Below, piece by piece: positions 1-32,000 of a DNA stretch of 32,000 nucleotides; position 1 is the stretch's first letter; each line of letters starts with the position of its first letter. Source of the stretch: Nostoc punctiforme PCC 73102 (GTDB lineage: Bacteria; Cyanobacteriota; Cyanobacteriia; Cyanobacteriales; Nostocaceae); assembly GCF_000020025.1 (NCBI RefSeq), contig NC_010628.1, positions 8,190,001-8,222,000 on the forward strand. The letters run 5' to 3'. Both the position numbers and the translations under genes were made by a program. The notes below the pieces were generated by a model, which saw only the letters and a program-made list of their open reading frames with translations, searched no databases and was not told where the DNA came from.

Positions 1-239
1 GGCAATTCAATTTTATGGGACTCAAATTGAATAGTTTTTCCCATTTTGCGACTGGCGTAGTCGCCCCGGACATTTATACCACTGCTTTTGACTCGCCGAA
101 TTGGTTCAGAGGCACGGATTTGGGAAATTAATTGCCTAGCCTCTTGTGGTAAATTTACGCCGCGACACCAATCATTAAACTCTTGGTCGCTCAACATATT
201 GGCCCCCAAGCTTTTAAAGCCGCAACAAGCTCTTACCAC
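1..239 (-). CDS. tnsB: TnsB-like DDE transposase, first ~79 codons only (gene continues left of the window)
   Basis: Same sequence as the 5' end of the 883-aa ORF 701..3352. GTG at 239, in-frame ATG at 197 (equivalent to 743 in copy 2). Confidence 0.8.
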   Translation of the reverse strand, partial: MVRACCGFKSLGANMLSDQEFNDWCRGVNLPQEARQLISQIRASEPIRRVKSSGINVRGDYASRKMGKTIQFESHKIEL

Positions 240-307
240 AAATCTAGGCTTTCGCCAGTTAAACAGTCTTTTATTGATATAAATATTTATACTTACCAGT
301 TCAGATG

Positions 308-358
308 ACTGCGGCCACTTTATGGTTTAAAAACGGCCACAATATCCTTTAAGTGACA
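308..358. repeat. 51-bp terminal inverted repeat, tnsB-proximal end of copy 1
   Basis: Reverse complement of 582..632. Terminus reads 5'-TGTCACTTAAAGGATATTGTGGCCGTTTTTAAACCATAAAGTGGCCGCAGT from outside in. Confidence 0.8.
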
Positions 359-581
359 CAAATGGACTTACGACAGCTTGAATTTTTGGGGTTTTTAAGA
401 GACAAACTTGCTACTTCAGGTATTTGAGGGTGCATAATCCCTTAACTTTCGGCACGTTTATGCTTGATTTTTAGACTTTCGGCAACTTTTTGGTTTCAAA
501 GCCAAATTTTAAGGCTGCGATCGCCTACGGCGGGCGCTTGCGCCATCGCGGAACGTTAAATCAAGCCTTGGCGCTTATCCT
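359..581. other. 223-bp spacer between head-to-head copies 1 and 2, carrying transposon-end-like repeats and a HIP1 site
   Basis: Unique sequence between the two termini. Two direct repeats, CTTTCGGCACGTTTATGC (446..463) and CTTTCGGCAACTTTTTGG (476..493), resemble the CATAA-NN-TKGCCG boxes next to the tniQ ends of copies 2 and 3. GCGATCGC lies at ~516. Confidence 0.5.
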
Positions 582-632
582 TGTCACTTAAAGGATATTG
601 TGGCCGTTTTTAAACCATAAAGTGGCCGCAGT
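582..632. repeat. 51-bp terminal inverted repeat, tnsB-proximal end of copy 2
   Basis: TGTCACTTAAAGGATATTGTGGCCGTTTTTAAACCATAAAGTGGCCGCAGT. Two GTGGCCG boxes 21 bp apart are candidate TnsB binding sites. Confidence 0.8.
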
Positions 633-648
633 CATCTGAACTGGTAAG

Positions 649-662
649 TATAAATATTTATA
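649..662. promoter_or_regulatory. Perfect 14-bp AT palindrome TATAAATATTTATA between the end repeat and the tnsB start (candidate -10/operator)
   Basis: Palindrome read directly. Also present in copy 1 (278..291) and copy 3 (31623..31636). Function is only inferred from its position upstream of tnsB. Confidence 0.3.
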
Positions 663-700
663 TCAATAAAAGACTGTTTAACTGGCGAAAGCCTAGATTT

Positions 701-3352
701 GTGGTAAGAGCTTGTTGCGGCTTTAAAAGCTTGGGGGCCAATATGTTGAGCGACCAAGAGTTTAATGATTGGTGTCGCGGCGTAAATTTACCACAAGAGG
801 CTAGGCAATTAATTTCCCAAATCCGTGCCTCTGAACCAATTCGGCGAGTCAAAAGCAGTGGTATAAATGTCCGGGGCGACTACGCCAGTCGCAAAATGGG
901 AAAAACTATTCAATTTGAGTCCCATAAAATTGAATTGCCAGGTGTAGAGGAGTACGAAGAAGACGCAGATGTACTCGAATACTACGACCAAGCATATCAA
1001 ATTACTCTAGAATTCCCCTCAAGCAGTGGGGAAATAATCAAAGCTTCGCATATACCAGACTTTTTCGTAATTCGGAAGCGGAGTGCAGGTTTTGAAGAGT
1101 GGAAACCAGAATCAAGATTAGAAAAATTAGCAGCTAAACAATCACAACGTTATATGCGTTCAGAAGATGGGCAGTGGTTAAACCTGCCAGCAGTTGCTTA
1201 TGCAGAAAAATTAGGACTGTATTACCGAATTCGGTTAGATACAGAAATTGATTGGATTAAATACAGAAATCGACTATTTCTCAAAGCCTATACTACTGAA
1301 GATTACCAAATTGACCCAGAAATAGCTGAAAATTTGGTGAAGTTAATTAGCTTAAATCCGGGCATAAGTTATTGGGAAATGATTCATACTCAACAGAGCA
1401 ATCCTGATGACATAAATGCTTTAATAGCTACAAAAAAAATTTACATTAATTTGAGTGCCGCACCCTTAGCAGAGCCAGAAAAAGTACAGCTTTTCCGTGA
1501 CCAAGAAATCGCGGTAGCTTATGTACAAATGATAAAATCGCAACCGAATAATGGAACGATTCTGAATATTTTAGATGTTAAACCCAATCAACTGGAACCT
1601 AAAACTCATAATCAAGTAAAAATGTCTCCAAAAGCAATGGAGCGTTTTTTGAGAGCTAGTCCTGAAGACTTGGCAGAAGCTAACCGAAGATATGAAGTAA
1701 TTGAACCTTATCTTAATGACAGTTATAGAGATAAAGAAACTGTTCCACAACGTACTATTCGCAGATGGAAGGCTAAGTTTATAGCAGCACAAAAGGCGTA
1801 CAAATGTGGTTATATTGGGCTGCTAAATAACTCTAATGCTAGAGGCAATCGCTTACCCAGAATTTCTCAATCGTCTCAAGATTTCATTGACAAAATAATT
1901 GAAGAATATTATGAAACTTTTCAACAAAGAAGCAAACTAGCTGTTTATGGAATTCTAGCAAGAGAATGGGAGAAAGCAGGTCTAACAGATAAGCTGCCTA
2001 GCTACGCTACATTTTGTTCTAGAATTCAACATCGTTCTGGTTATAGGCAAACAAAAAAACGTAAGGGAAACAGAGCAGCTTATCAACAATCTTTATTGTA
2101 TTGGGAGTTGAAATTAACCACACCATGTCATGGCGACCGTCCATTTGAGATAGCACACATTGACCATACGCAACTGGATATTGAGTTAGTATGCTCCCGA
2201 ACAGGTTATCTTCTTGGTAGACCTTGGGCAACTCTGTTAATCGATGCTTACAGCCGACGTATTCTCGCAGTTTACCTAACTTTTGACGAGCCAAGCTACC
2301 GTAGTTGCATGATGGTATTAAGAATCTGCGTACAGCGATTTGAGAAATTACCAGAGACAATAGTTGTTGACGGTGGGACAGAATTTAGTAGTACATACTT
2401 TGAGACCTTGTTAGCGGCTTTTGAATGTACCAAAAAGCAGCGACCAGCTGCGAAAGCCAGATTTGGTTCAATTATTGAACGTATTTTTGGAACTACAAAT
2501 ACAGAGTTTTTTTATAATCTTAGAGGCAACACTCAAATTACTAAGAATGTCCGCCAAGTCACGAAATCAAATAATCCCAAAAATCAAGCTGTTTGGACAC
2601 TAGATCAACTCTACGAAAACTTTTGTTCATATTGTTACGAATTCTATGATTGCAGAGAACATCCAACATTAGGACAAAGCCCACGTCAAACTTTTATGTC
2701 AGGGCTAAATTCAAGTGGTTATCGCCCTCAGAAACAGATTATTTATGATGATAATTTTAAGATTTTTACCTTACCTTCTACACCTAAAGGAACTGCAAAA
2801 GTTCAACCAAGTAGAGGCGTGAAAATTAATTATCTCTACTATTGGTCAATTGATGATTCGTTCATAAGACCAGAAATTGAAGGAACTAATGTACCTATTC
2901 GTTACGACCCTTTTGATATGGGGACTGCTTATGCTTACGTTAAGGGACGTTGGATACGCTGTATTTCTGAACATTACAAATCCTTCCAAAATCGTTCCGA
3001 AAAAGAAGTGAACATAGCCAGCACACAATTACGTCGAAAAAGGCAGAAACACGCTCAAAGAATTACTCTATCTGCCCAAGAAAAAGCTACATATTTAGAA
3101 GGAACTGAAGCCCAAGAAACTTTGTTATTACAACGCTTACATGATTTAGCACAACAAGATATTTGGGTTTTAATTGAAAAAAGCTCAGTTATTGAAAGTA
3201 AATTAAGTAAACACAATTATTCAGCTAATGTTCAAGATGTAGATAAAAATATTTTGGCAGGTTCAGAAAGCATTAAAAAGCCAAAATCATCAGCAAAAAA
3301 ATTAATAGATTTAACCAAAATAGAAGCTTACAATACAGAGGAGCTATGGTAA
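701..3352 (+). CDS. tnsB: TnsB-like DDE (rve/Mu-type) transposase, 883 aa
   Basis: Candidate DDE triad in HIDHTQLD, VVDGGTEF and IERIFGTTNTEFF. Size and position match TnsB/TniA. The track start is GTG at 701, and ATG at 743 (MLSDQEF...) preceded by GGGGG is a plausible true start. The stop overlaps the tnsC start (ATGGTAA). Confidence 0.9.
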   Translation: MVRACCGFKSLGANMLSDQEFNDWCRGVNLPQEARQLISQIRASEPIRRVKSSGINVRGDYASRKMGKTIQFESHKIELPGVEEYEEDADVLEYYDQAYQITLEFPSSSGEIIKASHIPDFFVIRKRSAGFEEWKPESRLEKLAAKQSQRYMRSEDGQWLNLPAVAYAEKLGLYYRIRLDTEIDWIKYRNRLFLKAYTTEDYQIDPEIAENLVKLISLNPGISYWEMIHTQQSNPDDINALIATKKIYINLSAAPLAEPEKVQLFRDQEIAVAYVQMIKSQPNNGTILNILDVKPNQLEPKTHNQVKMSPKAMERFLRASPEDLAEANRRYEVIEPYLNDSYRDKETVPQRTIRRWKAKFIAAQKAYKCGYIGLLNNSNARGNRLPRISQSSQDFIDKIIEEYYETFQQRSKLAVYGILAREWEKAGLTDKLPSYATFCSRIQHRSGYRQTKKRKGNRAAYQQSLLYWELKLTTPCHGDRPFEIAHIDHTQLDIELVCSRTGYLLGRPWATLLIDAYSRRILAVYLTFDEPSYRSCMMVLRICVQRFEKLPETIVVDGGTEFSSTYFETLLAAFECTKKQRPAAKARFGSIIERIFGTTNTEFFYNLRGNTQITKNVRQVTKSNNPKNQAVWTLDQLYENFCSYCYEFYDCREHPTLGQSPRQTFMSGLNSSGYRPQKQIIYDDNFKIFTLPSTPKGTAKVQPSRGVKINYLYYWSIDDSFIRPEIEGTNVPIRYDPFDMGTAYAYVKGRWIRCISEHYKSFQNRSEKEVNIASTQLRRKRQKHAQRITLSAQEKATYLEGTEAQETLLLQRLHDLAQQDIWVLIEKSSVIESKLSKHNYSANVQDVDKNILAGSESIKKPKSSAKKLIDLTKIEAYNTEELW

Positions 3353-4485
3353 AAATTCAGTCGCACTCTTTTCCAGAAGAACTTCTCTTACAGCCGAACG
3401 AAATTAAAACTGATTATTTCAAAAGTATCACTATTCCACATCAAAGGCTCAAACAAGCCTTAGATACTTTATTAATTAATATTCTGGAGCCAGCTGACAC
3501 TTTAGTATTTTTAGTTTTTGGTGTGACTGGTGTAGGAAAAACAACCTTACGCTTGCGTCTGGAAAATCTGCTAAATTACGAATTTCTCCCCTCATTACGC
3601 CAAAATCCTGGTCAAATTGCTGTTGCTGGTATTGAAGCTATTCCAACAGAACAAGGAAAGTTTAGCTATAAAGATTATTACACTCGCGCCCTAGAATCCC
3701 TTCAGGAAGTTTTGATTGAATACAAAATTGATTATGAAATTCCTCACGGTGAGGTAAAGGATTTGGGGTTGCTAAATCGGGCTTACCGCCAAGATTCGCC
3801 CGCATTACGCCGAGCAATGGAAAAAGCATTTCGTTATCGTCAGGTAAAAGCTTTTACTGTAGACGAGGCACAGCATTTATTTATGATGGCAGGCGGACAC
3901 CAGATGTTACAGCAAATGAACTGGATTAAGTCTATTGCTAATCTTACTGGTACAGTACATATTTTATTTGGAACTTATGAACTGCTTAACTGTCCTACCT
4001 TGAATGGGCAAATAGGGCGGCGTAGCGAAGATATTCACCTGTTACCTTACCAAGCTGATAACCCAGAAGATATTGCTGAATTTATTAGAGTAATTAGAAC
4101 TTTTCAACGCCACATTCCGCTTGTACAAGAACCAAAATTAGAACAACACTATGAGTATCTTTTTTCTGGCTCAGTTGGTTGTGTGGGGCTATTGAAGAAT
4201 TGGTTAACTCGTTCTTTGAGAGTTGCCTATTCTGAAGAAGCTCGGACTCTTAATAGCAAACATCTTAAATTAGGTGCTTTTTCTGCATCTCGTATCAACA
4301 AAATTAAGGAAGAAGCACAACAGGGATTTAAACGCTTTCAAGAAGAATCCAGTTTTTTTGAGCGGCAATATTCAACAGAACATGGAATAAAAATGCCAGC
4401 CAAAAATTCCCTACTCAAAAAAGGTCGTGTTGGACAAAGAAAACCTAAAAGAGATGATGTAGGGGTAAATTCAGATGATGACTAA
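3346..4485 (+). CDS. tnsC: TnsC/TniB-like AAA+ ATPase, 379 aa
   Basis: Walker A GVTGVGKTT and Walker B FTVDEAQH. Second gene of the tnsB-tnsC-tniQ order, overlapping both neighbours. Confidence 0.85.
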   Translation: MVKIQSHSFPEELLLQPNEIKTDYFKSITIPHQRLKQALDTLLINILEPADTLVFLVFGVTGVGKTTLRLRLENLLNYEFLPSLRQNPGQIAVAGIEAIPTEQGKFSYKDYYTRALESLQEVLIEYKIDYEIPHGEVKDLGLLNRAYRQDSPALRRAMEKAFRYRQVKAFTVDEAQHLFMMAGGHQMLQQMNWIKSIANLTGTVHILFGTYELLNCPTLNGQIGRRSEDIHLLPYQADNPEDIAEFIRVIRTFQRHIPLVQEPKLEQHYEYLFSGSVGCVGLLKNWLTRSLRVAYSEEARTLNSKHLKLGAFSASRINKIKEEAQQGFKRFQEESSFFERQYSTEHGIKMPAKNSLLKKGRVGQRKPKRDDVGVNSDDD

Positions 4486-6061
4486 CATGGCGGTTAACGA
4501 TGAATTGTGGCTCAAAGACCCAGAATTTACTCCCAGTCCTAGCCGGTTGTTTCATCTGGAACCGATTGGACTTGGTACTTGTTATGTTGAAAGTCTGACT
4601 AGCTATGTTGCTCGTCTAGCCGCAGCTCATAGCGTATTGCCTGGAACTTTATTGGCTAGAGAGATAAAACCAATAGTTGGGCATAACCATACTACCAATC
4701 CCTTGAATTCTAAAAGTATCGTAAGTTTGTATGGACAAGCTTCTGTAAAAGCTTTAAACGGAACACAAATTGGAGCTAAACAACTGGTTTTTGCTCTAGA
4801 AATATTGACAAAACGTACTGACTTACAGTTTTTGACAATGCTACCTTGGGCAAAAGTCTTCCCAGTTTTGGGATTGCTCAAGCATTCTCATGCTTGGTGT
4901 CCTTATTGCTATCAAGACTGGTTAAATAATCAACAAGTCATTTATTCACCTCTGCTGTGGGCTTTGAAACCAGCTAACATTTGTCCCATCCATTATCGAT
5001 TTTTAGAATCAAAATGTCCTCACTGTGACCTTGAATTTTTACACCTGTGGCATAACTCACGACCTGGATTTTGTCTGAAATGTGGTGGTTGGTTGGGGAT
5101 GAACTATGAAGTATCTTTGCCAGATAAGAGATTGTTCGAGGAGATACCCAATTTACAGCAAGAGATTTGGATAGTTAAGACTTTAGGAGATTTAATTGCT
5201 CAAGCTCCTGAATTTCCTTGTCCACCTCCAAGAGAGACTATTAAAACAATCCTAGAAGCTTACGTCTATCAATATACTCAAGGTAATGTTTCCGCTTTTG
5301 GTCGTTGGCTTGGGTTATCGAGATATGAAATTCTACATTGGTATTCAGGTGTAGCCATCCCAAATTTAGATAAACTTTTGAAAATCTGCTACGCCTTATC
5401 AACTAATCTTGTCGATTTTCTTCAACTTAAAATACTACCTCTTACTCTTAAGCAGCTAGTTTCTCTACCTGCTCCTAAACAGAAAAAATTATCATCACAG
5501 TCTGCTTTAGTTACTTCAAATAGTAGTCCTAAGTGCGAACGAGTTATTCAGGCGATGCAACTAGCTCAAGAAGAAGAACCACCTCCTTCTTTAACTCAAT
5601 TAGCTGTTCGTTTAGGATTCAAAACTCCTAGTAGTTTAACTGCTTGCTCAAAATCTTTATCAGCATCTTTGGCTACTAGATATAGTGAATATCAACAGCA
5701 GCTAAGATTTTTACACATCAGAGACATACTTGAATTAGCTTTGTTTAGCGACGAGTATCCACCACCTTCTCTAAGAAAAATAGCTAAGAGAACTGGTATT
5801 GGTTTGGCTACTTTCTACCACTATTGCCCTATTGTGTGCCATGCTATTTCTTTACGCTATAAAGATTACCGCAAATTCGTCCATAAACTAGCTATTGAGC
5901 AAGGCTGTCGAGAAGTACGCCAACTCGCTTCAGTACTTCATGCACAAGGCATTACCCCTACTGCTAAAAATCTCAGAAAATTTATGCCTCATCCCTCTTT
6001 GCTGTGGCAGGCTGAGGTAATTGATGTTTTAAGGCAGATAAGACTGGATCTTTCACAGTAA
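4475..6061 (+). CDS. tniQ: Long TniQ/TnsD-like target-selection protein, 528 aa
   Basis: N-terminal TniQ-like segment (ESLTSYVARLAAAHSV). Cys/His clusters CPYC...CPIH...CPHC and CLKC suggest a zinc ribbon. The C-terminus holds duplicated HTH-like modules (PPPSLTQLAVRLG / PPPSLRKIAKRTG). Confidence 0.8.
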   Translation: MMTNMAVNDELWLKDPEFTPSPSRLFHLEPIGLGTCYVESLTSYVARLAAAHSVLPGTLLAREIKPIVGHNHTTNPLNSKSIVSLYGQASVKALNGTQIGAKQLVFALEILTKRTDLQFLTMLPWAKVFPVLGLLKHSHAWCPYCYQDWLNNQQVIYSPLLWALKPANICPIHYRFLESKCPHCDLEFLHLWHNSRPGFCLKCGGWLGMNYEVSLPDKRLFEEIPNLQQEIWIVKTLGDLIAQAPEFPCPPPRETIKTILEAYVYQYTQGNVSAFGRWLGLSRYEILHWYSGVAIPNLDKLLKICYALSTNLVDFLQLKILPLTLKQLVSLPAPKQKKLSSQSALVTSNSSPKCERVIQAMQLAQEEEPPPSLTQLAVRLGFKTPSSLTACSKSLSASLATRYSEYQQQLRFLHIRDILELALFSDEYPPPSLRKIAKRTGIGLATFYHYCPIVCHAISLRYKDYRKFVHKLAIEQGCREVRQLASVLHAQGITPTAKNLRKFMPHPSLLWQAEVIDVLRQIRLDLSQ

Positions 6062-6095
6062 ATCTTATTTATTCGCCTTTCTCTAAGGTTTTACT

Positions 6096-6146
6096 ACTGC
6101 GGCCACTTTATGCTTTAAAAACGGCCACAATATCCTTTAAGTGACA
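6096..6146. repeat. 51-bp terminal inverted repeat, tniQ-proximal end of copy 2
   Basis: Reverse complement matches 582..632 except one C/G difference at position 34. Ends ...AAGTGACA at 6146. Confidence 0.8.
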
Positions 6147-6196
6147 ATTTGAAACCATAAACGTGCCACCCCGGCAAACTTATGCTTACAGTCACA
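6147..6196. repeat. Relic transposon-end-like segment ending ...CAGTCACA
   Basis: Contains CCATAAACGTGCC (6155..6167) and GGCAAACTTATGC (6173..6185). The outer 25 nt match the equivalent segment beside copy 3 (26083..26107) at 21/25. Not part of the identical copies. Confidence 0.45.
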
Positions 6197-15313: not shown

Positions 15314-15322
15314 TGATGCAAG

Positions 15323-15542: not shown

Positions 15543-15630
15543 ACAACGGGCTACGTCTACGCACCATCAGATTTTTCAGTGGCGTACCATTATTATAAAA
15601 TCATATAAGTGATAACACGTAAACATATAA

Positions 15631-15798: not shown

Positions 15799-15985
15799 AA
15801 ATTTCGTTATGAAGCTTTGCTTGTTCGTGGTGTCTGGCAGATTTATTCTAAGTTGGGGCTGCTCATTATAGAAATCTCTCCGCGTACCCTAATCAAAAGA
15901 CCTCTCCCTGCTTTTACTACACAAAATTATCCCTCTCCGACTCGCAGAGAAACTTGAACTTTAGTTCAAGGTAGGGAGAGGTCTA

Positions 15986-18900: not shown

Positions 18901-19675
18901 TAAGGGGGGTTGGGGGGATCAAAACCAAGGCATCACAGAGACGCTGCGTTAAATAAGGATGTCCCCCCGTCCACTTCAACACCTGGCGTAATACCTGCTT
19001 AGACTCATCGCTGGGTAATCCCAATCCCTCAGCGAAGGGTAAGGCTTCCTCAAAGGTAAAATCAGTTAAATCCACACGCTGTCCAATATTAAACGGTGTG
19101 CGCTTGGCATCGCTGATTAAATCGCCGGGAGTCGCTACCCCCATTAAAACAAAAGAAAGCCGCCCAAACTCAGGATTAGTCGCACGGGCAACATAGAGAT
19201 AACGAATTGCGATAAAAAAATCATCGGTAAAATCCAGGCTGAGGGTAGAGTCAATTTCATCCACAAAAATCACCACTTGCCCTTCAACCTCAGCCAGCAA
19301 AACCTTCTCAAAAAACTGTGTCAGCCGTTGCGATACTCCCAGATGCTCGTGTTCTTGCCACCAACTCACCACATCTGTATCAAACATAAGTTGGTCATCC
19401 AGTTTGACCAAAAAGCCAAAATACCACTGTTCGGCTGTGACACTTGCCCCCAATTCCTGAAGGTCAACAATTACTGAGCTAATCCCCTCTTCCCTTAATG
19501 TGTCTGCCGTGCGTACCATCAGGCTAGACTTACCCATTTGGCGCGGCGTTAGCACATAGGCGAATATTGCTGACCGACATAAACCAAGCAATTCCTCATC
19601 AGCTTGACGGGGAATGTAAATCCCACTGCCAGCCTGTACAGTCCCCCCCACGGTGTAAATGCTTGGATTACCCAC
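15986..19675 (-). CDS. STAND-like (AAA_35-type) ATPase - TM helix - coiled coil - 14x WD40 protein, 1229 aa
   Basis: Walker A TPRQMGKSS, Walker B VVIFVDEID, GGHPYL motif. Hydrophobic segment at aa 406-429, Q/E/K/A-rich segment at aa 430-566, and 14 WD40 units of 41 aa from aa 628. The GTG start overlaps the upstream gene's stop. Confidence 0.9.
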   Translation of the reverse strand: MGNPSIYTVGGTVQAGSGIYIPRQADEELLGLCRSAIFAYVLTPRQMGKSSLMVRTADTLREEGISSVIVDLQELGASVTAEQWYFGFLVKLDDQLMFDTDVVSWWQEHEHLGVSQRLTQFFEKVLLAEVEGQVVIFVDEIDSTLSLDFTDDFFIAIRYLYVARATNPEFGRLSFVLMGVATPGDLISDAKRTPFNIGQRVDLTDFTFEEALPFAEGLGLPSDESKQVLRQVLKWTGGHPYLTQRLCDALVLIPPTPLKKGGNELPDLEIPTAPVSNSSIVPPFLRGVRGDRVLSSADIDSIVSSTFFGAMSEQDNNLQFVRDMLTKRSPDPEVLTIYREIRWGKRAVVDEEQSLAKSHLKLSGVVRRENNVLRVRNEVYRQVFDYKWINKHLPFNLRDRWEQLKPALPYVIVMIVFSTLSTGVAWYIYKQNLIAQKARDSEKEQRLIAQDALKREQTQRQEADRQTKNAQNQQQKAEEQHREADKQRQRAETGEAQAKSAQELAEKRGIDLEKALKQTKAAEQLAKDRQADAEKQRNIAQKQEQQAIAAKADADKRRINAEILANSLKSQNLMASNFELDALIEGLKVGKRLKTPNKKVEPNTRVLAVATLQQVIYGVKERNRLEAHSSSVRGVAFSPDGQTIASASDDKTVKLWNRNGQLLQTLTGHSSSVWGVAFSPDGQTIASASDDKTVKLWNRNGQLLQTLTGHSSSVRGVAFSPDGQTIASASDDKTVKLWNRNGQLLQTLTGHSSSVWGVAFSPDGQTIASASDDKTVKLWNRNGQLLQTLTGHSSSVWGVAFSPDGQTIASASDDKTVKLWNRNGQLLQTLTGHSSSVRGVAFSPDGQTIASASDDKTVKLWNRNGQLLQTLTGHSSSVNGVAFRPDGQTIASASDDKTVKLWNRNGQLLQTLTGHSSSVWGVAFSPDGQTIASASDDKTVKLWNRNGQLLQTLTGHSSSVWGVAFSPDGQTIASASDDKTVKLWNRNGQLLQTLTGHSSSVRGVAFSPDGQTIASASDDKTVKLWNRNGQLLQTLTGHSSSVWGVAFSPDDQTIASASDDKTVKLWNRNGQLLQTLTGHSSSVRGVAFSPDGQTIASASDDKTVKLWNRNGQLLQTLTGHSSSVRGVAFSPDGQTIASASDDKTVKLWNRNGQLLQTLTGHSSSVWGVAFSPDGQTIASASSDKTVKLWNLNLDDLMVKGCTWVRDYLQNNPNVSKDDKHLCDDIGTRR
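16106..17794 (-). repeat. 14 tandem near-identical 123-bp repeats encoding WD40 blades
   Basis: Unit HSSSV[W/R/N]GVAF[S/R]PD[G/D]QTIASAS[D/S]DKTVKLWNRNGQLLQTLTG. The nucleotide units differ at only a handful of positions. Confidence 0.95.
18802..18920. mobile_element. 119-bp palindromic G/C-tract mini-element (SDR/MITE-like) inside the STAND-WD40 CDS
   Basis: Arms are GATCCCCCCTAACCCCCCTTAAGAAGGGGGG and, on the other side, CCCCCCTTTTTAAGGGGGGTTGGGGGGATC, around a 57-bp centre. Translated in frame as ~aa 252-292 (LIPPTPLKKGG...PPFLRGVRGDR). Confidence 0.6.
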
Positions 19676-21203
19676 GTAGATGCTCCCGGAAATAATCGGT
19701 ATAAAGTTGACAACGAGGAAACACTACACGCCCTTCCCGGCGCACCAAACCCGCACCCCGCAACCGGAAAAAGATGCGCTCATCTTCACAGGTGTTCTGG
19801 TGAATTACTTGGAACATACCTTGAACCAACTCCTGTTTGTTATGCAGCCGGAAGAGGTGGTTACGCAAATGATTGCCAAAGGGGCCATCCTCTGCGATCG
19901 CATTGGCAAATAATTCGGTAGGATAGAGGCGATCGCTAGCAACTGAGTAAAGTGCAAGGCGTACTAAGTAAGGATGTCCACCTAGCAACGCTATTAATTG
20001 CTTTTCTTCGCTGGCATTGAAGGGTGAACCATGACGGCGGTTTAAATCAGCAACCTGTGCTGCTGTAAAATCTTCTAAATCAATTACTAGCCCAACATTA
20101 AAGGGGGATTGGTTGAGATTATCAATTAGCTGGTAGGGTTCGGTGGAAGTAACCAGCGCTAAATCCAGTTGCTTCCAGATGGGATTAGTGGCGCGGCTAT
20201 TGTGCCAGCTTCGCAGCATTCCAAAGAAATCAGAGCGAAAATCAGTATCAAAGACCCTTTCAACTTCATCCATCGCTAAGACAATGGGGTTGCCAAACTC
20301 TTTGAGCAAATAGCGGCCGACGTAGCGAGTGCAACGCTGACTATTGCCCAAAGGCATATTCCAATACTCATCAACTTTATCTGTCATTTCCAGTTCATCA
20401 GTTAACCAAGTACAGAACTGGCGAAAGAAAAGGTCAGCATTAGTTAAGGCAGCTTTGTCAAACAATTGAAAATCCAGCAAAGCAACCCGCTTACCTGCAT
20501 TCACAGCAGTATTAATTGTGCGGATTAACAGGGAACTTTTGCCCATTTGCCGGGGGCCTTTAATTGTAATTGTCACACCCTGCCGCTCAATAGTCTCTAA
20601 AGTAAGGGCATCAGATGAGCGTTCCACGTAAAAAGCGGATTGCGATTCCATTGTTCCTTCGGGCATTTCCAGGGAGACAGGCTGTGCTGAAGGAAAGGGA
20701 CGGGGTAGGAGTGACGGCTGACTCTTCTGGATTAAGTCTGCTTTTGATTTTTCTTCACTGATAGCTAATGCACCGCCATAGACAGCCTGCAACAACTCTG
20801 CAATTAGTCGCGGCGTATCTTCTGCATCTTTCCAGAATGCCCAGTTAATCCCATTTAAGTAAGCACTCAAGGGATACAGGAACGGTTCTTGATACGCCAG
20901 ACGCACCGGGAGAATTATCGGTCGTCCTGACTGTGATTTTGCCAAGTGGTGTGCTGTCTCTATCTCTGCCACCACCATCTCGCTGCTAGTTGACAAAGCA
21001 GAAAGGAAAGTAATCAAAAAATCAGCTTGGCGGATTTCTGCTTCAATACATTCAGCCCAGCGTGTGCCAACAGACATGGTTTGGTCGATGAAGACTTTGT
21101 GCTGCTGCGATAGTGCTTGGAAGACTTGGAGTGCTACTGGTTCATCGGGGCTAGCATTACGCTTGTAACTGATGAAGATGCGTTTAGCCTGTGAGTTTAA
21201 CAT
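19668..21203 (-). CDS. TIR domain - STAND-like (AAA_35-type) ATPase, 511 aa
   Basis: N-terminal TIR (RIFISYKRN...ADFLITFLSALSTSSEMVVAEIE). Walker A GPRQMGKSS, Walker B IVLAMDEVE and GGHPYL. The ATPase module is paralogous to that of the downstream WD40 protein. Confidence 0.85.
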   Translation of the reverse strand: MLNSQAKRIFISYKRNASPDEPVALQVFQALSQQHKVFIDQTMSVGTRWAECIEAEIRQADFLITFLSALSTSSEMVVAEIETAHHLAKSQSGRPIILPVRLAYQEPFLYPLSAYLNGINWAFWKDAEDTPRLIAELLQAVYGGALAISEEKSKADLIQKSQPSLLPRPFPSAQPVSLEMPEGTMESQSAFYVERSSDALTLETIERQGVTITIKGPRQMGKSSLLIRTINTAVNAGKRVALLDFQLFDKAALTNADLFFRQFCTWLTDELEMTDKVDEYWNMPLGNSQRCTRYVGRYLLKEFGNPIVLAMDEVERVFDTDFRSDFFGMLRSWHNSRATNPIWKQLDLALVTSTEPYQLIDNLNQSPFNVGLVIDLEDFTAAQVADLNRRHGSPFNASEEKQLIALLGGHPYLVRLALYSVASDRLYPTELFANAIAEDGPFGNHLRNHLFRLHNKQELVQGMFQVIHQNTCEDERIFFRLRGAGLVRREGRVVFPRCQLYTDYFREHLRG

Positions 21204-21430
21204 TACTATTAACCTTGTCTTCCTTCAGCTTTTTAAGTAGAAAAGCTTATCTAATTGCGTGTCAATTTTGTACAGAAGTTGGGTAATTCTGTGCTTTGTC
21301 ATCCAAGGGCATTTTTTCCCTATTTCGAGAATTAGCTGAACAAATTAGGATTTTATTCACAGCGCTATCAATTAGTTACACTCTACTACAGCGCAGTTGC
21401 AGGCAATTACCGACAGCACAAAAAAATTGC

Positions 21431-21556
21431 TTACGGAGTTCAAAGGCTCATTAACGGAGTTCAAAGACTCGTTAACAGAGCTAAAAGACTCGTTAATGGA
21501 GCTAAAAGACTCGTTAACGGAGTTCAAAGACTCGTTAACGGAGTTCAAAAACTCGT
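21431..21556. repeat. Tandem array of 21-bp units (TAACGGAGTTCAAAGACTCGT), 6 copies
   Basis: Units at 21431, 21452, 21473, 21494, 21515 and 21536. Lies ~230 bp upstream of the TIR-ATPase start codon. Confidence 0.9.
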
Positions 21557-21657
21557 TAGAGATATGAAAAATAATGTAGAAATGTAGCAGTGCTACGTCT
21601 CTACAAGGATTCTAGATGATGCATATTTAATTTATAGAGATATCTATTATTGAAGAA

Positions 21658-26082: not shown

Positions 26083-26137
26083 TGTGACTTTACCCATAAC
26101 TTTGCCGCTACTGGAACCATAACTTTGCCGTCAACAA
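26083..26137. repeat. Relic transposon-end-like segment starting TGTGACT with two CCATAACTTTGCCG boxes
   Basis: Boxes at 26094..26107 and 26117..26130 (23-bp spacing). The outer 25 nt match the reverse complement of 6172..6196 at 21/25. Confidence 0.45.
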
Positions 26138-26188
26138 TGTCACTTAAAGGATATTGTGGCCGTTTTTAAAGCATAAAGTGGCCGCAGT
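26138..26188. repeat. 51-bp terminal inverted repeat, tniQ-proximal end of copy 3
   Basis: TGTCACTTAAAGGATATTGTGGCCGTTTTTAAAGCATAAAGTGGCCGCAGT, identical to the reverse complement of 6096..6146. Confidence 0.8.
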
Positions 26189-26222
26189 AGTAAAACCTTA
26201 GAGAAAGGCGAATAAATAAGAT

Positions 26223-27809
26223 TTACTGTGAAAGATCCAGTCTTATCTGCCTTAAAACATCAATTACCTCAGCCTGCCACAGCAAAGAGGGATGAGGCAT
26301 AAATTTTCTGAGATTTTTAGCAGTAGGGGTAATGCCTTGTGCATGAAGTACTGAAGCGAGTTGGCGTACTTCTCGACAGCCTTGCTCAATAGCTAGTTTA
26401 TGGACGAATTTGCGGTAATCTTTATAGCGTAAAGAAATAGCATGGCACACAATAGGGCAATAGTGGTAGAAAGTAGCCAAACCAATACCAGTTCTCTTAG
26501 CTATTTTTCTTAGAGAAGGTGGTGGATACTCGTCGCTAAACAAAGCTAATTCAAGTATGTCTCTGATGTGTAAAAATCTTAGCTGCTGTTGATATTCACT
26601 ATATCTAGTAGCCAAAGATGCTGATAAAGATTTTGAGCAAGCAGTTAAACTACTAGGAGTTTTGAATCCTAAACGAACAGCTAATTGAGTTAAAGAAGGA
26701 GGTGGTTCTTCTTCTTGAGCTAGTTGCATCGCCTGAATAACTCGTTCGCACTTAGGACTACTATTTGAAGTAACTAAAGCAGACTGTGATGATAATTTTT
26801 TCTGTTTAGGAGCAGGTAGAGAAACTAGCTGCTTAAGAGTAAGAGGTAGTATTTTAAGTTGAAGAAAATCGACAAGATTAGTTGATAAGGCGTAGCAGAT
26901 TTTCAAAAGTTTATCTAAATTTGGGATGGCTACACCTGAATACCAATGTAGAATTTCATATCTCGATAACCCAAGCCAACGACCAAAAGCGGAAACATTA
27001 CCTTGAGTATATTGATAGACGTAAGCTTCTAGGATTGTTTTAATAGTCTCTCTTGGAGGTGGACAAGGAAATTCAGGAGCTTGAGCAATTAAATCTCCTA
27101 AAGTCTTAACTATCCAAATCTCTTGCTGTAAATTGGGTATCTCCTCGAACAATCTCTTATCTGGCAAAGATACTTCATAGTTCATCCCCAACCAACCACC
27201 ACATTTCAGACAAAATCCAGGTCGTGAGTTATGCCACAGGTGTAAAAATTCAAGGTCACAGTGAGGACATTTTGATTCTAAAAATCGATAATGGATGGGA
27301 CAAATGTTAGCTGGTTTCAAAGCCCACAGCAGAGGTGAATAAATGACTTGTTGATTATTTAACCAGTCTTGATAGCAATAAGGACACCAAGCATGAGAAT
27401 GCTTGAGCAATCCCAAAACTGGGAAGACTTTTGCCCAAGGTAGCATTGTCAAAAACTGTAAGTCAGTACGTTTTGTCAATATTTCTAGAGCAAAAACCAG
27501 TTGTTTAGCTCCAATTTGTGTTCCGTTTAAAGCTTTTACAGAAGCTTGTCCATACAAACTTACGATACTTTTAGAATTCAAGGGATTGGTAGTATGGTTA
27601 TGCCCAACTATTGGTTTTATCTCTCTAGCCAATAAAGTTCCAGGCAATACGCTATGAGCTGCGGCTAGACGAGCAACATAGCTAGTCAGACTTTCAACAT
27701 AACAAGTACCAAGTCCAATCGGTTCCAGATGAAACAACCGGCTAGGACTGGGAGTAAATTCTGGGTCTTTGAGCCACAATTCATCGTTAACCGCCATGTT
27801 AGTCATCAT
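26223..27809 (-). CDS. tniQ: Long TniQ/TnsD-like target-selection protein, 528 aa (identical to copy 2)
   Basis: Translation identical to ORF 4475..6061. Confidence 0.8.
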   Translation of the reverse strand: MMTNMAVNDELWLKDPEFTPSPSRLFHLEPIGLGTCYVESLTSYVARLAAAHSVLPGTLLAREIKPIVGHNHTTNPLNSKSIVSLYGQASVKALNGTQIGAKQLVFALEILTKRTDLQFLTMLPWAKVFPVLGLLKHSHAWCPYCYQDWLNNQQVIYSPLLWALKPANICPIHYRFLESKCPHCDLEFLHLWHNSRPGFCLKCGGWLGMNYEVSLPDKRLFEEIPNLQQEIWIVKTLGDLIAQAPEFPCPPPRETIKTILEAYVYQYTQGNVSAFGRWLGLSRYEILHWYSGVAIPNLDKLLKICYALSTNLVDFLQLKILPLTLKQLVSLPAPKQKKLSSQSALVTSNSSPKCERVIQAMQLAQEEEPPPSLTQLAVRLGFKTPSSLTACSKSLSASLATRYSEYQQQLRFLHIRDILELALFSDEYPPPSLRKIAKRTGIGLATFYHYCPIVCHAISLRYKDYRKFVHKLAIEQGCREVRQLASVLHAQGITPTAKNLRKFMPHPSLLWQAEVIDVLRQIRLDLSQ

Positions 27810-28938
27810 CTGAATTTACCCCTACATCATCTCTTTTAGGTTTTCTTTGTCCAACACGACCTTTTTTGAGTAGGGAATTTTTGGCTGGCATTTTTATTCC
27901 ATGTTCTGTTGAATATTGCCGCTCAAAAAAACTGGATTCTTCTTGAAAGCGTTTAAATCCCTGTTGTGCTTCTTCCTTAATTTTGTTGATACGAGATGCA
28001 GAAAAAGCACCTAATTTAAGATGTTTGCTATTAAGAGTCCGAGCTTCTTCAGAATAGGCAACTCTCAAAGAACGAGTTAACCAATTCTTCAATAGCCCCA
28101 CACAACCAACTGAGCCAGAAAAAAGATACTCATAGTGTTGTTCTAATTTTGGTTCTTGTACAAGCGGAATGTGGCGTTGAAAAGTTCTAATTACTCTAAT
28201 AAATTCAGCAATATCTTCTGGGTTATCAGCTTGGTAAGGTAACAGGTGAATATCTTCGCTACGCCGCCCTATTTGCCCATTCAAGGTAGGACAGTTAAGC
28301 AGTTCATAAGTTCCAAATAAAATATGTACTGTACCAGTAAGATTAGCAATAGACTTAATCCAGTTCATTTGCTGTAACATCTGGTGTCCGCCTGCCATCA
28401 TAAATAAATGCTGTGCCTCGTCTACAGTAAAAGCTTTTACCTGACGATAACGAAATGCTTTTTCCATTGCTCGGCGTAATGCGGGCGAATCTTGGCGGTA
28501 AGCCCGATTTAGCAACCCCAAATCCTTTACCTCACCGTGAGGAATTTCATAATCAATTTTGTATTCAATCAAAACTTCCTGAAGGGATTCTAGGGCGCGA
28601 GTGTAATAATCTTTATAGCTAAACTTTCCTTGTTCTGTTGGAATAGCTTCAATACCAGCAACAGCAATTTGACCAGGATTTTGGCGTAATGAGGGGAGAA
28701 ATTCGTAATTTAGCAGATTTTCCAGACGCAAGCGTAAGGTTGTTTTTCCTACACCAGTCACACCAAAAACTAAAAATACTAAAGTGTCAGCTGGCTCCAG
28801 AATATTAATTAATAAAGTATCTAAGGCTTGTTTGAGCCTTTGATGTGGAATAGTGATACTTTTGAAATAATCAGTTTTAATTTCGTTCGGCTGTAAGAGA
28901 AGTTCTTCTGGAAAAGAGTGCGACTGAATTTTTACCAT
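27799..28938 (-). CDS. tnsC: TnsC/TniB-like AAA+ ATPase, 379 aa (identical to copy 2)
   Basis: Translation identical to ORF 3346..4485. Confidence 0.85.
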   Translation of the reverse strand: MVKIQSHSFPEELLLQPNEIKTDYFKSITIPHQRLKQALDTLLINILEPADTLVFLVFGVTGVGKTTLRLRLENLLNYEFLPSLRQNPGQIAVAGIEAIPTEQGKFSYKDYYTRALESLQEVLIEYKIDYEIPHGEVKDLGLLNRAYRQDSPALRRAMEKAFRYRQVKAFTVDEAQHLFMMAGGHQMLQQMNWIKSIANLTGTVHILFGTYELLNCPTLNGQIGRRSEDIHLLPYQADNPEDIAEFIRVIRTFQRHIPLVQEPKLEQHYEYLFSGSVGCVGLLKNWLTRSLRVAYSEEARTLNSKHLKLGAFSASRINKIKEEAQQGFKRFQEESSFFERQYSTEHGIKMPAKNSLLKKGRVGQRKPKRDDVGVNSDDD

Positions 28939-29106
28939 AGCTCCTCTGTATTGTAAGCTTCTATTTTGGTTAAATCTATTAATTTTTTTGCTGATGATTT
29001 TGGCTTTTTAATGCTTTCTGAACCTGCCAAAATATTTTTATCTACATCTTGAACATTAGCTGAATAATTGTGTTTACTTAATTTACTTTCAATAACTGAG
29101 CTTTTT

Positions 29107-31584
29107 TCAATTAAAAGCCCAAATATCTTGTTGTGCTAAATCATGTAAGCGTTGTAATAACAAAGTTTCTTGGGCTTCAGTTCCTTCTAAATATGTAGCT
29201 TTTTCTTGGGCAGATAGAGTAATTCTTTGAGCGTGTTTCTGCCTTTTTCGACGTAATTGTGTGCTGGCTATGTTCACTTCTTTTTCGGAACGATTTTGGA
29301 AGGATTTGTAATGTTCAGAAATACAGCGTATCCAACGTCCCTTAACGTAAGCATAAGCAGTCCCCATATCAAAAGGGTCGTAACGAATAGGTACATTAGT
29401 TCCTTCAATTTCTGGTCTTATGAACGAATCATCAATTGACCAATAGTAGAGATAATTAATTTTCACGCCTCTACTTGGTTGAACTTTTGCAGTTCCTTTA
29501 GGTGTAGAAGGTAAGGTAAAAATCTTAAAATTATCATCATAAATAATCTGTTTCTGAGGGCGATAACCACTTGAATTTAGCCCTGACATAAAAGTTTGAC
29601 GTGGGCTTTGTCCTAATGTTGGATGTTCTCTGCAATCATAGAATTCGTAACAATATGAACAAAAGTTTTCGTAGAGTTGATCTAGTGTCCAAACAGCTTG
29701 ATTTTTGGGATTATTTGATTTCGTGACTTGGCGGACATTCTTAGTAATTTGAGTGTTGCCTCTAAGATTATAAAAAAACTCTGTATTTGTAGTTCCAAAA
29801 ATACGTTCAATAATTGAACCAAATCTGGCTTTCGCAGCTGGTCGCTGCTTTTTGGTACATTCAAAAGCCGCTAACAAGGTCTCAAAGTATGTACTACTAA
29901 ATTCTGTCCCACCGTCAACAACTATTGTCTCTGGTAATTTCTCAAATCGCTGTACGCAGATTCTTAATACCATCATGCAACTACGGTAGCTTGGCTCGTC
30001 AAAAGTTAGGTAAACTGCGAGAATACGTCGGCTGTAAGCATCGATTAACAGAGTTGCCCAAGGTCTACCAAGAAGATAACCTGTTCGGGAGCATACTAAC
30101 TCAATATCCAGTTGCGTATGGTCAATGTGTGCTATCTCAAATGGACGGTCGCCATGACATGGTGTGGTTAATTTCAACTCCCAATACAATAAAGATTGTT
30201 GATAAGCTGCTCTGTTTCCCTTACGTTTTTTTGTTTGCCTATAACCAGAACGATGTTGAATTCTAGAACAAAATGTAGCGTAGCTAGGCAGCTTATCTGT
30301 TAGACCTGCTTTCTCCCATTCTCTTGCTAGAATTCCATAAACAGCTAGTTTGCTTCTTTGTTGAAAAGTTTCATAATATTCTTCAATTATTTTGTCAATG
30401 AAATCTTGAGACGATTGAGAAATTCTGGGTAAGCGATTGCCTCTAGCATTAGAGTTATTTAGCAGCCCAATATAACCACATTTGTACGCCTTTTGTGCTG
30501 CTATAAACTTAGCCTTCCATCTGCGAATAGTACGTTGTGGAACAGTTTCTTTATCTCTATAACTGTCATTAAGATAAGGTTCAATTACTTCATATCTTCG
30601 GTTAGCTTCTGCCAAGTCTTCAGGACTAGCTCTCAAAAAACGCTCCATTGCTTTTGGAGACATTTTTACTTGATTATGAGTTTTAGGTTCCAGTTGATTG
30701 GGTTTAACATCTAAAATATTCAGAATCGTTCCATTATTCGGTTGCGATTTTATCATTTGTACATAAGCTACCGCGATTTCTTGGTCACGGAAAAGCTGTA
30801 CTTTTTCTGGCTCTGCTAAGGGTGCGGCACTCAAATTAATGTAAATTTTTTTTGTAGCTATTAAAGCATTTATGTCATCAGGATTGCTCTGTTGAGTATG
30901 AATCATTTCCCAATAACTTATGCCCGGATTTAAGCTAATTAACTTCACCAAATTTTCAGCTATTTCTGGGTCAATTTGGTAATCTTCAGTAGTATAGGCT
31001 TTGAGAAATAGTCGATTTCTGTATTTAATCCAATCAATTTCTGTATCTAACCGAATTCGGTAATACAGTCCTAATTTTTCTGCATAAGCAACTGCTGGCA
31101 GGTTTAACCACTGCCCATCTTCTGAACGCATATAACGTTGTGATTGTTTAGCTGCTAATTTTTCTAATCTTGATTCTGGTTTCCACTCTTCAAAACCTGC
31201 ACTCCGCTTCCGAATTACGAAAAAGTCTGGTATATGCGAAGCTTTGATTATTTCCCCACTGCTTGAGGGGAATTCTAGAGTAATTTGATATGCTTGGTCG
31301 TAGTATTCGAGTACATCTGCGTCTTCTTCGTACTCCTCTACACCTGGCAATTCAATTTTATGGGACTCAAATTGAATAGTTTTTCCCATTTTGCGACTGG
31401 CGTAGTCGCCCCGGACATTTATACCACTGCTTTTGACTCGCCGAATTGGTTCAGAGGCACGGATTTGGGAAATTAATTGCCTAGCCTCTTGTGGTAAATT
31501 TACGCCGCGACACCAATCATTAAACTCTTGGTCGCTCAACATATTGGCCCCCAAGCTTTTAAAGCCGCAACAAGCTCTTACCAC
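29107..31584 (-). CDS. tnsB: TnsB-like transposase truncated by a +1 frameshift (825 aa; the full-length equivalent would span 28932..31584)
   Basis: The first 822 aa are identical to copy 2. Copy 2 reads GATATTTGGGTTTTAATTG, and copy 3 reads GATATTTGGGCTTTTAATTG (extra base at 29117), giving ...DIWAFN* in place of the last 61 aa. Confidence 0.85.
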   Translation of the reverse strand: MVRACCGFKSLGANMLSDQEFNDWCRGVNLPQEARQLISQIRASEPIRRVKSSGINVRGDYASRKMGKTIQFESHKIELPGVEEYEEDADVLEYYDQAYQITLEFPSSSGEIIKASHIPDFFVIRKRSAGFEEWKPESRLEKLAAKQSQRYMRSEDGQWLNLPAVAYAEKLGLYYRIRLDTEIDWIKYRNRLFLKAYTTEDYQIDPEIAENLVKLISLNPGISYWEMIHTQQSNPDDINALIATKKIYINLSAAPLAEPEKVQLFRDQEIAVAYVQMIKSQPNNGTILNILDVKPNQLEPKTHNQVKMSPKAMERFLRASPEDLAEANRRYEVIEPYLNDSYRDKETVPQRTIRRWKAKFIAAQKAYKCGYIGLLNNSNARGNRLPRISQSSQDFIDKIIEEYYETFQQRSKLAVYGILAREWEKAGLTDKLPSYATFCSRIQHRSGYRQTKKRKGNRAAYQQSLLYWELKLTTPCHGDRPFEIAHIDHTQLDIELVCSRTGYLLGRPWATLLIDAYSRRILAVYLTFDEPSYRSCMMVLRICVQRFEKLPETIVVDGGTEFSSTYFETLLAAFECTKKQRPAAKARFGSIIERIFGTTNTEFFYNLRGNTQITKNVRQVTKSNNPKNQAVWTLDQLYENFCSYCYEFYDCREHPTLGQSPRQTFMSGLNSSGYRPQKQIIYDDNFKIFTLPSTPKGTAKVQPSRGVKINYLYYWSIDDSFIRPEIEGTNVPIRYDPFDMGTAYAYVKGRWIRCISEHYKSFQNRSEKEVNIASTQLRRKRQKHAQRITLSAQEKATYLEGTEAQETLLLQRLHDLAQQDIWAFN

Positions 31585-31652
31585 AAATCTAGGCTTTCGC
31601 CAGTTAAACAGTCTTTTATTGATATAAATATTTATACTTACCAGTTCAGATG

Positions 31653-31703
31653 ACTGCGGCCACTTTATGGTTTAAAAACGGCCACAATATCCTTTAAGTG
31701 ACA
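31653..31703. repeat. 51-bp terminal inverted repeat, tnsB-proximal end of copy 3
   Basis: Identical to 308..358. Terminus ...AAGTGACA at 31703. Confidence 0.8.
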
Positions 31704-31734
31704 CAAAAAGCTTTTTGGCATTTTCAATTTTTAG

Positions 31735-32000
31735 TGGGGGTGGAGGGACTTGAACCCACACGACCTATTACGGTCAACGGATTTTCATCCTCCCGCAGTT
31801 TTCACTGCTACCTGATGGCAATAGCCAAATCAGATTTTGAGAATTGGACTCTCCCTTTACCCTCGACTTTACGTTAGGGTAGCTCCCGTCGGGTCTCTGC
31901 ACCTTCCCTCAATTTTGGGTTTTGGATTTTAGATTGAAAACTAATCCCAAATCTAAAATCGCAAATCTAAAATTTTCGGGCTTGGCTCAGGATTGCCATG
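31735..32000 (-). tRNA. trnL: tRNA-Leu(UAA) interrupted by a group I intron. The 3' exon is 31735..31785; the rest of the intron and the 5' exon lie beyond the window
   Basis: Minus strand reads ...GGGAGGATG|AAAATCCGTTGACCGTAATAGGTCGTGTGGGTTCAAGTCCCTCCACCCCCA. This gives the AA of the UAA anticodon, a long variable arm (GACC/GGTC), a T-loop TTCAAGT and an acceptor 3' strand, with no encoded CCA. Confidence 0.85.
31786..32000 (-). ncRNA. Group I intron of tRNA-Leu(UAA), 3' ~215 nt (partial)
   Basis: Ends in omega-G before the 3' exon. Contains GGCAATCCTGAGCCAAGCC, GGGAGCTACCCTAACGT, GAGGGTAAAG.GAGAGTCCAATTCTCAAA and GCTGCGGGAG.ATG blocks that I recall from the Anabaena/Nostoc intron. Confidence 0.85.

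Follow-up and report, generated by a model that had tools for sequence, protein, structure and literature searches.

A minimal Tn7-like element 31 bp downstream of tRNA-Leu(UAA) in Nostoc punctiforme, and the association of its family with relic ends of other Tn7-like elements

An element end beside tRNA-Leu(UAA)

A stretch of 32,000 nucleotides from Nostoc punctiforme PCC 73102 (contig NC_010628.1, positions 8,190,001 to 8,222,000 of the forward strand; hereafter the window) contains three copies, named A, B and C, of one Tn7-like element made of the genes tnsAB, tnsC and tniQ, and one end of copy C lies 31 bp past the 3' end of a tRNA-Leu(UAA) gene. We propose, with a probability of about 0.5, that this junction results from a single homing event of the TnsD type, which took place in the minority orientation and was later modified by recombination. 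Homing at tRNA genes is not the usual behaviour of this family, most members of which sit instead inside relic ends of other, unrelated Tn7-like elements, about 52 bp from the relic terminus and with the left end turned to it.

The 3' exon of tRNA-Leu(UAA) (31735..31785, minus strand) was assigned from an exact match to published Nostoc trnL primers and from the group I intron that adjoins it. Read from the sequence, the exon is AAAATCCGTTGACCGTAATAGGTCGTGTGGGTTCAAGTCCCTCCACCCCCA, from 31785 down to 31735, with the discriminator A at 31735. On the plus strand, 31745-31765 (GGGACTTGAACCCACACGACC) equals the published Nostoc trnL(UAA) 3'-exon primer trnL_UR and 31736-31751 fits the primer tRNALeu-outR, GGGGRYRGRGGGACTT (PMC8220813). 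The 3' part of the intron occupies 31786..32000 (minus strand); in an E-value scan, the Rfam family Intron_gpI (RF00028) matched 31823..32000 on this strand (E=5.2e-8), that is the 3' two-thirds of a group I intron, the 5' side being cut by the end of the window. The window gave no tRNA with ARAGORN or with Rfam at the gathering threshold, as the intron splits the gene and the window stops short of its 5' exon.

From the element end to the 3' end of the tRNA, the spacer (31704..31734) measures 31 bp and begins with CAAAA (31704-31708), the would-be half of a 5-bp duplication. The terminus at 31703, the discriminator at 31735 and the spacer length had been read from the letters alone in the original prediction, and every one of these coordinates was borne out by the alignment of the copies, the intron match and the primer identity. 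No uninterrupted version of the region downstream of tRNA-Leu was found: the contigs carrying the neighbouring gene of 438 amino acids (aa) all end about 20-30 nt inside the element. As read, the T-arm (31740-31762) shows a U-U mismatch in the T-stem (GTGGG/CCCTC); its sequence is identical to the standard Nostoc primer, and the mismatch seems normal for the genus. Within the intron, an AT-rich hairpin (31907-31976) with degenerate short repeats (aaatctaaaat...) gave spurious microRNA matches and presumably corresponds to the variable, repeat-bearing stem of Nostoc trnL introns.

The distance of 31 bp falls within the range of about 29-33 bp at which tRNA-homing TnsD elements insert; CyCAST, for instance, lands 30-33 nt past the gene when its TnsD homes at tRNA-Leu (PMC10293859). 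In tRNA-targeting relatives, a conserved motif is located 40-50 bp from the transposon end (PMC11837452) and, given the 31-bp spacer, the T-arm (GGGACTTGAAC, 43-53 nt from the element end) comes close to the place of this motif. With about 90 tRNA genes (an estimated count) on a chromosome of 8.23 Mb, the chance of landing in a 5-bp window downstream of any tRNA gene is about 1e-4 per insertion. In addition, the three proteins of the element are close homologues of the PmcCAST TnsABCD machinery that was solved on a tRNA att site, and its TniQ retains the C-terminal region reported to be essential for tRNA targeting in McTnsD (PMC11837452).

These elements suggest the following sequence of events. 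TniQ would bind the tRNA gene in its 3' part, the spacer of about 30 bp would be covered by a TnsC ring and TnsAB would join the element with a 5-bp stagger. The insertion would have occurred in the minority orientation, which brings the right end, not the left, beside the target, and later homologous recombination with other copies would have reshuffled copy C. We infer that TniQ reads the tRNA, while the same or another component reads the relic ends described below.

Element anatomy, copies and rearrangement

The three copies are 100% identical in sequence up to TGTCAC/GTGACA and unrelated immediately beyond, which fixes the terminus of copy C at 31703. Copy C (26138..31703, minus strand) is a minimal Tn7-like element of 5,565/5,566 bp, bounded by TGTCAC...GTGACA and encoding tnsAB-tnsC-tniQ; it is identical to copy B except for one inserted base. 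Copy B (582..6146, plus strand) is intact, with tnsAB at 701..3352, tnsC at 3346..4485 and tniQ at 4475..6061. Copy A (1..358, minus strand) is partial, only its tnsAB-proximal 358 bp being inside the window, and it faces copy B head-to-head at a distance of 223 bp. Each full copy has three open reading frames (ORFs), without cargo and without Cas12k, and no array resembling CRISPR (short palindromic repeats, clustered and regularly interspaced) was found within the window.

The tnsAB-proximal terminal inverted repeat of copy C (31653..31703, minus strand; 51 bp), delimited from repeat families and the sequence itself, is the right end by the Peters-lab convention and contains two TnsAB-site-like repeats, GGATATTGTGGCCG and CCATAAAGTGGCCGC. 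The TniQ-proximal repeat, or left end (26138..26188, plus strand), also measures 51 bp and differs from the other end by one base. That 31703 is the tnsAB-proximal end follows from the position of the tnsAB ORF, at 29107..31584 on the minus strand.

An exact-protein look-up found isolated contigs of about 5.5 kb in public short-read assemblies that carry the element with the same limits, and such collapsed contigs are the signature of a multi-copy repeat. Given the identical copies and the many contigs of this kind, the element has apparently been active recently.

The copies have evidently been reshuffled by recombination. The flank CAAAT of the tnsAB-side end of copy A is the reverse complement of ATTTG, which flanks the TniQ-side end of copy B. 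Since this pairing restores a 5-bp duplication, recombination between A and B would have inverted the 223-bp segment that separates them (359..581). The element must have at least one further copy, a fourth. Copies A and B, identical and head-to-head at 223 bp, and the third copy 20 kb off give no sign of target immunity, which in its classical Tn7 form would forbid copies so close together.

Proteins and family placement

The tnsAB gene of copy C encodes a TnsA-TnsB fusion of 825 aa, as established from the ORF, Pfam and the comparison of indels. A +1 insertion (an extra C) at about 29117, corresponding to 3167/3168 in copy B, frameshifts the gene, whose intact form in copy B and in public contigs reaches 883 aa (869 aa from the first ATG). 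The TnsAB of copy C is thereby without the C-terminal stretch that contacts TnsC in relatives; indeed, the C-terminal hook of PmcTnsAB binds TnsC (PMC11915506). Copy C, the one beside the tRNA, is therefore probably non-autonomous. Pfam domains in TnsAB are PF08722 (TnsA-like_N, residues 88-177), PF00665 (rve) and PF09299 (Mu-transposase_C). The original prediction spoke of TnsB: a transposase gene is indeed present, and these domains make it a TnsA-TnsB fusion, frameshifted in the tRNA-side copy. The protein matches the PDB chain 9bw1_M (898 aa) with E=2.3e-270; this chain is called "Integrase" in an entry that also holds PmcTnsC and PmcTnsD, and we take it to be PmcTnsAB.

The tnsC gene of copy C (27799..28938, minus strand) encodes an AAA+ regulator of 379 aa (Pfam AAA_22/TniB; PDB PmcTnsC 8fcu_Q, E=2.6e-90), and tniQ/tnsD (26223..27809, minus strand) encodes a putative target selector of 528 aa (Pfam TniQ; PDB PmcTnsD 8v32_J, E=1.1e-79). 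TniQ aligns to PmcTnsD over residues 9-321, its N-terminal TniQ part, and 412-512, the C-terminal helix-turn-helix (HTH) region, and has a weak Pfam HTH_26 match; about 90 extra residues (322-411) have no counterpart in PmcTnsD. As far as sequence can tell, the C-terminal region that is the hallmark of tRNA-homing TnsD proteins is thus present. NCBIfam offered no useful family for TnsAB, TnsC or TniQ.

As in the cyanobacterial clade with fused TnsA-TnsB, an AAA+ regulator TnsC and a TniQ-family selector are encoded downstream of the transposase. The element likewise has TGT...ACA termini with several transposase-site-like repeats, and its family makes 5-bp duplications, found in relatives (TACTG at locus L032, TTAAG at locus L023) and in the reconstructed A/B pair (CAAAT) and absent from copy C. 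Judged on these features of sequence, it is a minimal, cargo-less member of this Tn7-like clade, resembling an insertion sequence (IS). The att sites of most clade members are at tRNAs, which a TnsD-like protein reads, and the sites listed include "tRNA-Leu* with a group I intron" (PMC9881144). Cargo-less members are also known, namely Tn5469 and the array-targeting minimal elements.

Orientation, survey of relatives and other points against tRNA homing

Several results weigh against homing at the tRNA gene, among which is the orientation of copy C. The name right end is given by convention to the end upstream of the tns genes, and the side turned towards the att site varies among Tn7-like elements (PMC11406308). 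McCAST places its left end beside the target in more than 99% of insertions, and the array and tRNA alignments of PMC11837452 show the sequence beyond the left end. Two array-targeting copies of A. franciscana, with perfect 5-bp duplications (CCTTC and ATAAA), behave in the same way: both have 13 nt between the TniQ-side end and the next CRISPR repeat, and 33 and 30 nt between the tnsAB-side end and the repeat before it. The constant TniQ-side distance indicates that the clade places the tnsAB-distal end beside the recognised sequence, a rule that rests on McCAST, the convention of PMC11406308 and these two copies. In copy C, the tnsAB-proximal end faces the tRNA. The original prediction had drawn support from Tn7, which turns its tns-proximal end to the gene; this is correct for Tn7 and does not transfer to a clade that faces its target with the left end.

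The flanks of copy C, AACAA (26133-26137) and CAAAA (31704-31708), form no target-site duplication. This absence points to copy C being a recombinant, and it also prevents its original target from being rebuilt; we propose that the duplication was lost through the later recombination with other copies. A simple insertion with a mutated duplication was considered, and as two changes would be needed in otherwise identical copies, recombination was favoured. Moreover, over the 33 nt that adjoin the tnsAB-side ends in copies A and C (359-391 versus 31704-31736), the two flanks match in register at 23 of 33 positions (p ~0.001 by dinucleotide shuffles), a hint of a local target preference that does not depend on the tRNA. 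The similarity of the copy A flank to the tRNA part is not significant (p = 0.29), and a decayed tRNA-Leu copy in 359-581 was rejected on this value, only the first 33 nt being alike.

Finally, relatives whose TniQ is 36-98% identical were collected from genomes, metagenomes, read-archive assemblies and plasmids, a sample in which many contigs are short and from which the other copies of the source genome were left out. The genome-contig scan gave 5 short loci, the metagenome scan 2 loci and the viral sequence scan none; close relatives are all from Nostoc. No tRNA was found near the related loci (about 30 loci scanned, plasmid loci included), no Rfam family match, and so no group I intron, in 20 related loci, and no trnL 3'-exon motif in 58 loci (677 kb, the window included). 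The other distinct flanks, about 25 in number, likewise have neither a tRNA nor a group I intron nor the trnL motif nearby, which leaves the tRNA junction as a single case. Within this limited sample, relatives do not recurrently occupy the same tRNA site, and the enrichment next to tRNA genes by which the original prediction was to stand or fall did not appear.

Protein-guided homing at the tRNA, as originally proposed, thus retains its full-length PmcTnsD homologue and its fitting 31 bp, and loses the support expected from orientation and from relatives. It is moreover not a new inference, for such homing, including at intron-containing tRNA-Leu, has been published and structurally resolved for this clade.

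Relic Tn7-like ends flanking the family

The flank that does recur is the relic end of another Tn7-like element, composed of two TnsAB-site-like repeats (...ATAAnnTTGCC...) and, outward of them, a terminus ...GTCACA. Such a terminus was found outside the element end in 14 of the 25 distinct flanks of the close family, at 50 nt (two cases), 52 nt (four), 53 nt (seven) and 55 nt (one). Full-length copies show it at 7 of 11 TniQ-side ends and at none of 6 tnsAB-side ends, and it also occurs at 6 of 8 ends of derivatives of 190-210 bp that are miniature inverted-repeat transposable elements (MITEs). In the window, the relic end at 6147..6196 (plus strand) has its TnsAB-like sites as a palindromic pair and its terminus, ...CAGTCACA at 6196, pointing outward, the left end of copy B lying 50 nt inside. 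The relic end at 26083..26137 (plus strand) has its terminus TGTGAC at 26083 and two direct sites, the left end of copy C lying 55 nt inside.

We argue that these are independent insertions, as the identical copies B and C occupy two different relic types, locus L032 shows a perfect TACTG duplication inside a relic end with two further sites about 110 nt inward, cases found later with a profile on plasmids of N. flagelliforme and Nostoc ATCC 53789 (loci L055 and L056) have distances of 50 and 53 nt, and in the first profile scan, covering 414 kb, nearly all terminus-like matches were at or beside element ends, with none in the unique 20-kb middle of the window. The profile was built from examples picked by eye, so that the independent confirmations are L055 and L056 only, and some of the composites of one MITE inside another could be one old nesting that spread as a unit.

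The geometry recalls that of the array-targeting family, in which 49-50 nt separate the left end from the far edge of the recognised CRISPR repeat; by analogy, with the same end involved, the relic terminus is a plausible target of the TnsD type. The original prediction had attributed the other copies to a second, less specific targeting mode. Those copies are no evidence of such a mode, since they, like most relatives, lie inside relic Tn7-like ends at a fixed distance of 50-55 nt. We therefore consider, as a tentative general model that we hold as possible and somewhat short of an even chance, that the family homes into the terminal ~50 bp of resident Tn7-like ends, at the inner edge of the terminal repeat and with its left end facing the relic terminus, possibly along with an ancestral tRNA-Leu homing. 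The selector would be the TnsD-like TniQ or a transposase bound to the foreign end. No description of oriented insertion into foreign transposon ends was found in the literature searched.

Other associations of this kind were observed among the relatives. The loci L027 (1314-1610), L030 (5369-5664), L055 (6861-7110) and L056 (6837-7101) hold the 190-210-bp MITE derivatives; in L027 and L030, two foreign terminal repeats form a relic MITE of about 105 bp, at the exact middle of which the MITE is nested, and in L055 and L056 the relic terminus adjoins it on one side only. On Nostoc plasmids, the termini of distinct Tn7-like elements abut, 1 and 7 nt apart (L052, 15940-16010, and L054, 14700-14790), and at least three Tn7-like elements are clustered on plasmid pNsp_b, which suggests stacking at shared sites. 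On plasmid p057_G of Nostoc sp. C057 (L028, 5442-7672), an IS5 element truncates a 99% identical copy, whose left end is found upstream of a tnsAB gene belonging to another Tn7-like element, some 150 nt away; the flank type of this copy, ATACTTATAACTTCGTTAAG, also borders both ends of the copy at L011.

Alternative explanations of the tRNA junction

The relic ends raise an alternative to tRNA homing, in which the selector has been retargeted to other Tn7-like termini (a "transposon-end hunter") and the tRNA junction is a by-product, due either to cross-recognition at the tRNA site or to the far side of a relic-aimed insertion that recombination later separated. The 14 of 25 flanks with a terminus at 50-55 nt speak for it, as do the bias of 7 of 11 against 0 of 6 ends, which is the orientation of the clade for TnsD targets, the parallel with the sister family that targets arrays, the two relic types of copies B and C, the duplication of L032 and the near confinement of matches to element ends in the 414-kb scan. 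At the junction itself, two observations speak against it: the tRNA flank gives no match to the relic-terminus profile, so that mimicry is unsupported, and a relic cannot fit into the 31-bp spacer. The T-arm as a mimic of a transposon terminus was tried and rejected, with no profile match and about 9 of 25 positions alike by eye. The by-eye origin of the profile, with its two independent confirmations, and the possible spread of nested MITEs as a unit also count against this explanation, which we regard as rather unlikely for the junction.

It could also be that the tRNA is not recognised at all, and that an untargeted insertion, or one following a local AT-rich preference, fell by chance in the terminator region of the tRNA. 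Tn5469, a minimal relative, was described as apparently untargeted (PMC9881144; PMC11406308), the orientation of copy C is wrong for TnsD homing, and the likeness of the A and C flanks over 33 nt, with no tRNA beyond A, is the only positive hint of such a preference. An insertion at random, however, would hit the 29-33-bp homing window with the chance of about 1e-4 given above, and the fixed 50-55-nt geometry at relic ends means that the family is not untargeted; we hold this explanation for improbable. RNA-guided homing as in the type V-K CRISPR-associated transposons (CASTs), with a CRISPR RNA (crRNA) supplied in trans, would accord with the general V-K habit of sitting downstream of tRNA genes, which the original prediction cited. 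It is effectively refuted by the TnsA domain, by a core that is wholly of I-B2 type, and by three ORFs with neither Cas12k nor a CRISPR array in the window; the element is likewise not a V-K relative devoid of Cas12k, given the same TnsA domain and I-B2-type core. The original prediction had rightly suggested that neither Cas12k nor crRNA is involved, the element having three genes only. A single TnsD-type homing event at tRNA-Leu(UAA), in the minority orientation and followed by recombination, remains our preferred reading.

Other features of the window

The genes between the copies include one for a WD40 protein of 1,229 aa (15986-19675, minus strand), whose repeats at 15978-17876 form 14 tandem units of 123 nt (41 aa), most of them 97-99% identical in DNA, with two diverged units at the ends. 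It is directly downstream of a gene for a 511-aa protein with TIR and AAA_35 domains (19668-21203), which it overlaps by a few bases, and the two are possibly a defence-type NTPase module. A second TIR protein gene is located at 9072-10310. Arrays of 30-nt repeats containing GCGATCGC occupy 15290-15840, mostly in intergenic DNA, and an array of 21-nt repeats lies just upstream of the TIR gene (21420-21566).

Significance

Taken as first read, tRNA homing adds little, since its mechanism is published for the clade. The element is of interest as a natural minimal TnsABCD system, with three genes, near-identical ends of 51 bp and a core homologous to the core used in PmcCAST engineering. The combination of a canonical homing distance with a non-canonical orientation bears on how Tn7-like elements set their left-right polarity. 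If true, oriented insertion 50-55 nt inside foreign Tn7-like ends, which may be new, would constitute a new class of att site, a "safe haven" in other transposons. Such insertion would moreover turn classical Tn7 target immunity into its opposite, in line with the apparent absence of such immunity here.

Comparison with known systems

The closest known systems include PmcCAST/Tn7744 (I-B2), McCAST/Tn7575 and CyCAST/Tn7745 (I-D), TnsAB-fusion elements with TnsD-guided tRNA homing, which share with the element the TnsAB-TnsC-TnsD core, the TGT/ACA ends and the 5-bp duplication. They likewise insert about 30 bp downstream of tRNA genes, intron-containing tRNA-Leu being a known att site. The element differs from them by having no second TniQ, no Cascade and no cargo, and by being multi-copy. 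Its tnsAB-proximal end faces the tRNA, whereas McCAST presents the left end in more than 99% of insertions; its TniQ carries the insert at residues 322-411 that PmcTnsD does not have; and, unlike the tRNA-homing CASTs, its relatives were not found at tRNAs.

The array-targeting minimal elements (Chacon Machado & Peters 2025, PMC11837452) are also cargo-less tnsAB-tnsC-tnsD elements of 5-6 kb that resemble IS and often occur as several identical copies per genome. Their target adjoins the TnsD-side end at a constant spacing, its far edge being about 50 nt away, and AfTnsD is 36.6% identical to the TniQ studied here over residues 8-411. In contrast, no CRISPR repeat flanks the copies described here, the recurrent flank being a relic transposon end, and TniQ retains the C-terminal HTH region that array-targeting TnsD proteins have lost; the element is thus not of the array-targeting kind.

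Tn5469 and Tn5541 of Fremyella/Tolypothrix are likewise minimal members of the TnsAB clade with one TniQ and no cargo, and plasmids of Tolypothrix and Microchaete carry a minimal element whose TniQ shows 35.6% identity over 97% of the length. The apparently untargeted character given to Tn5469 differs from the precise and oriented insertion geometry of the present family. The resemblance to Tn5053/Tn402, the "res hunters", is functional only: these are TniQ-bearing Tn7 relatives that home into a site of other mobile elements (PMC11406308), but they are without TnsA, use a resolvase, target res sites and have no close sequence relationship to the element. Compared with the type V-K systems, Cas12k, tracrRNA and a CRISPR array are missing here and TnsA is present. 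Finally, in prototypic Tn7 (TnsD/attTn7), a selector of the TniQ family likewise reads a conserved gene end and directs insertion at a fixed short distance downstream, with a 5-bp duplication. There, however, it is the right end, proximal to the tns genes, that faces the target, TnsA and TnsB are two proteins while they are fused here, and target immunity operates, whereas the copies in the window stand 223 bp and 20 kb apart.

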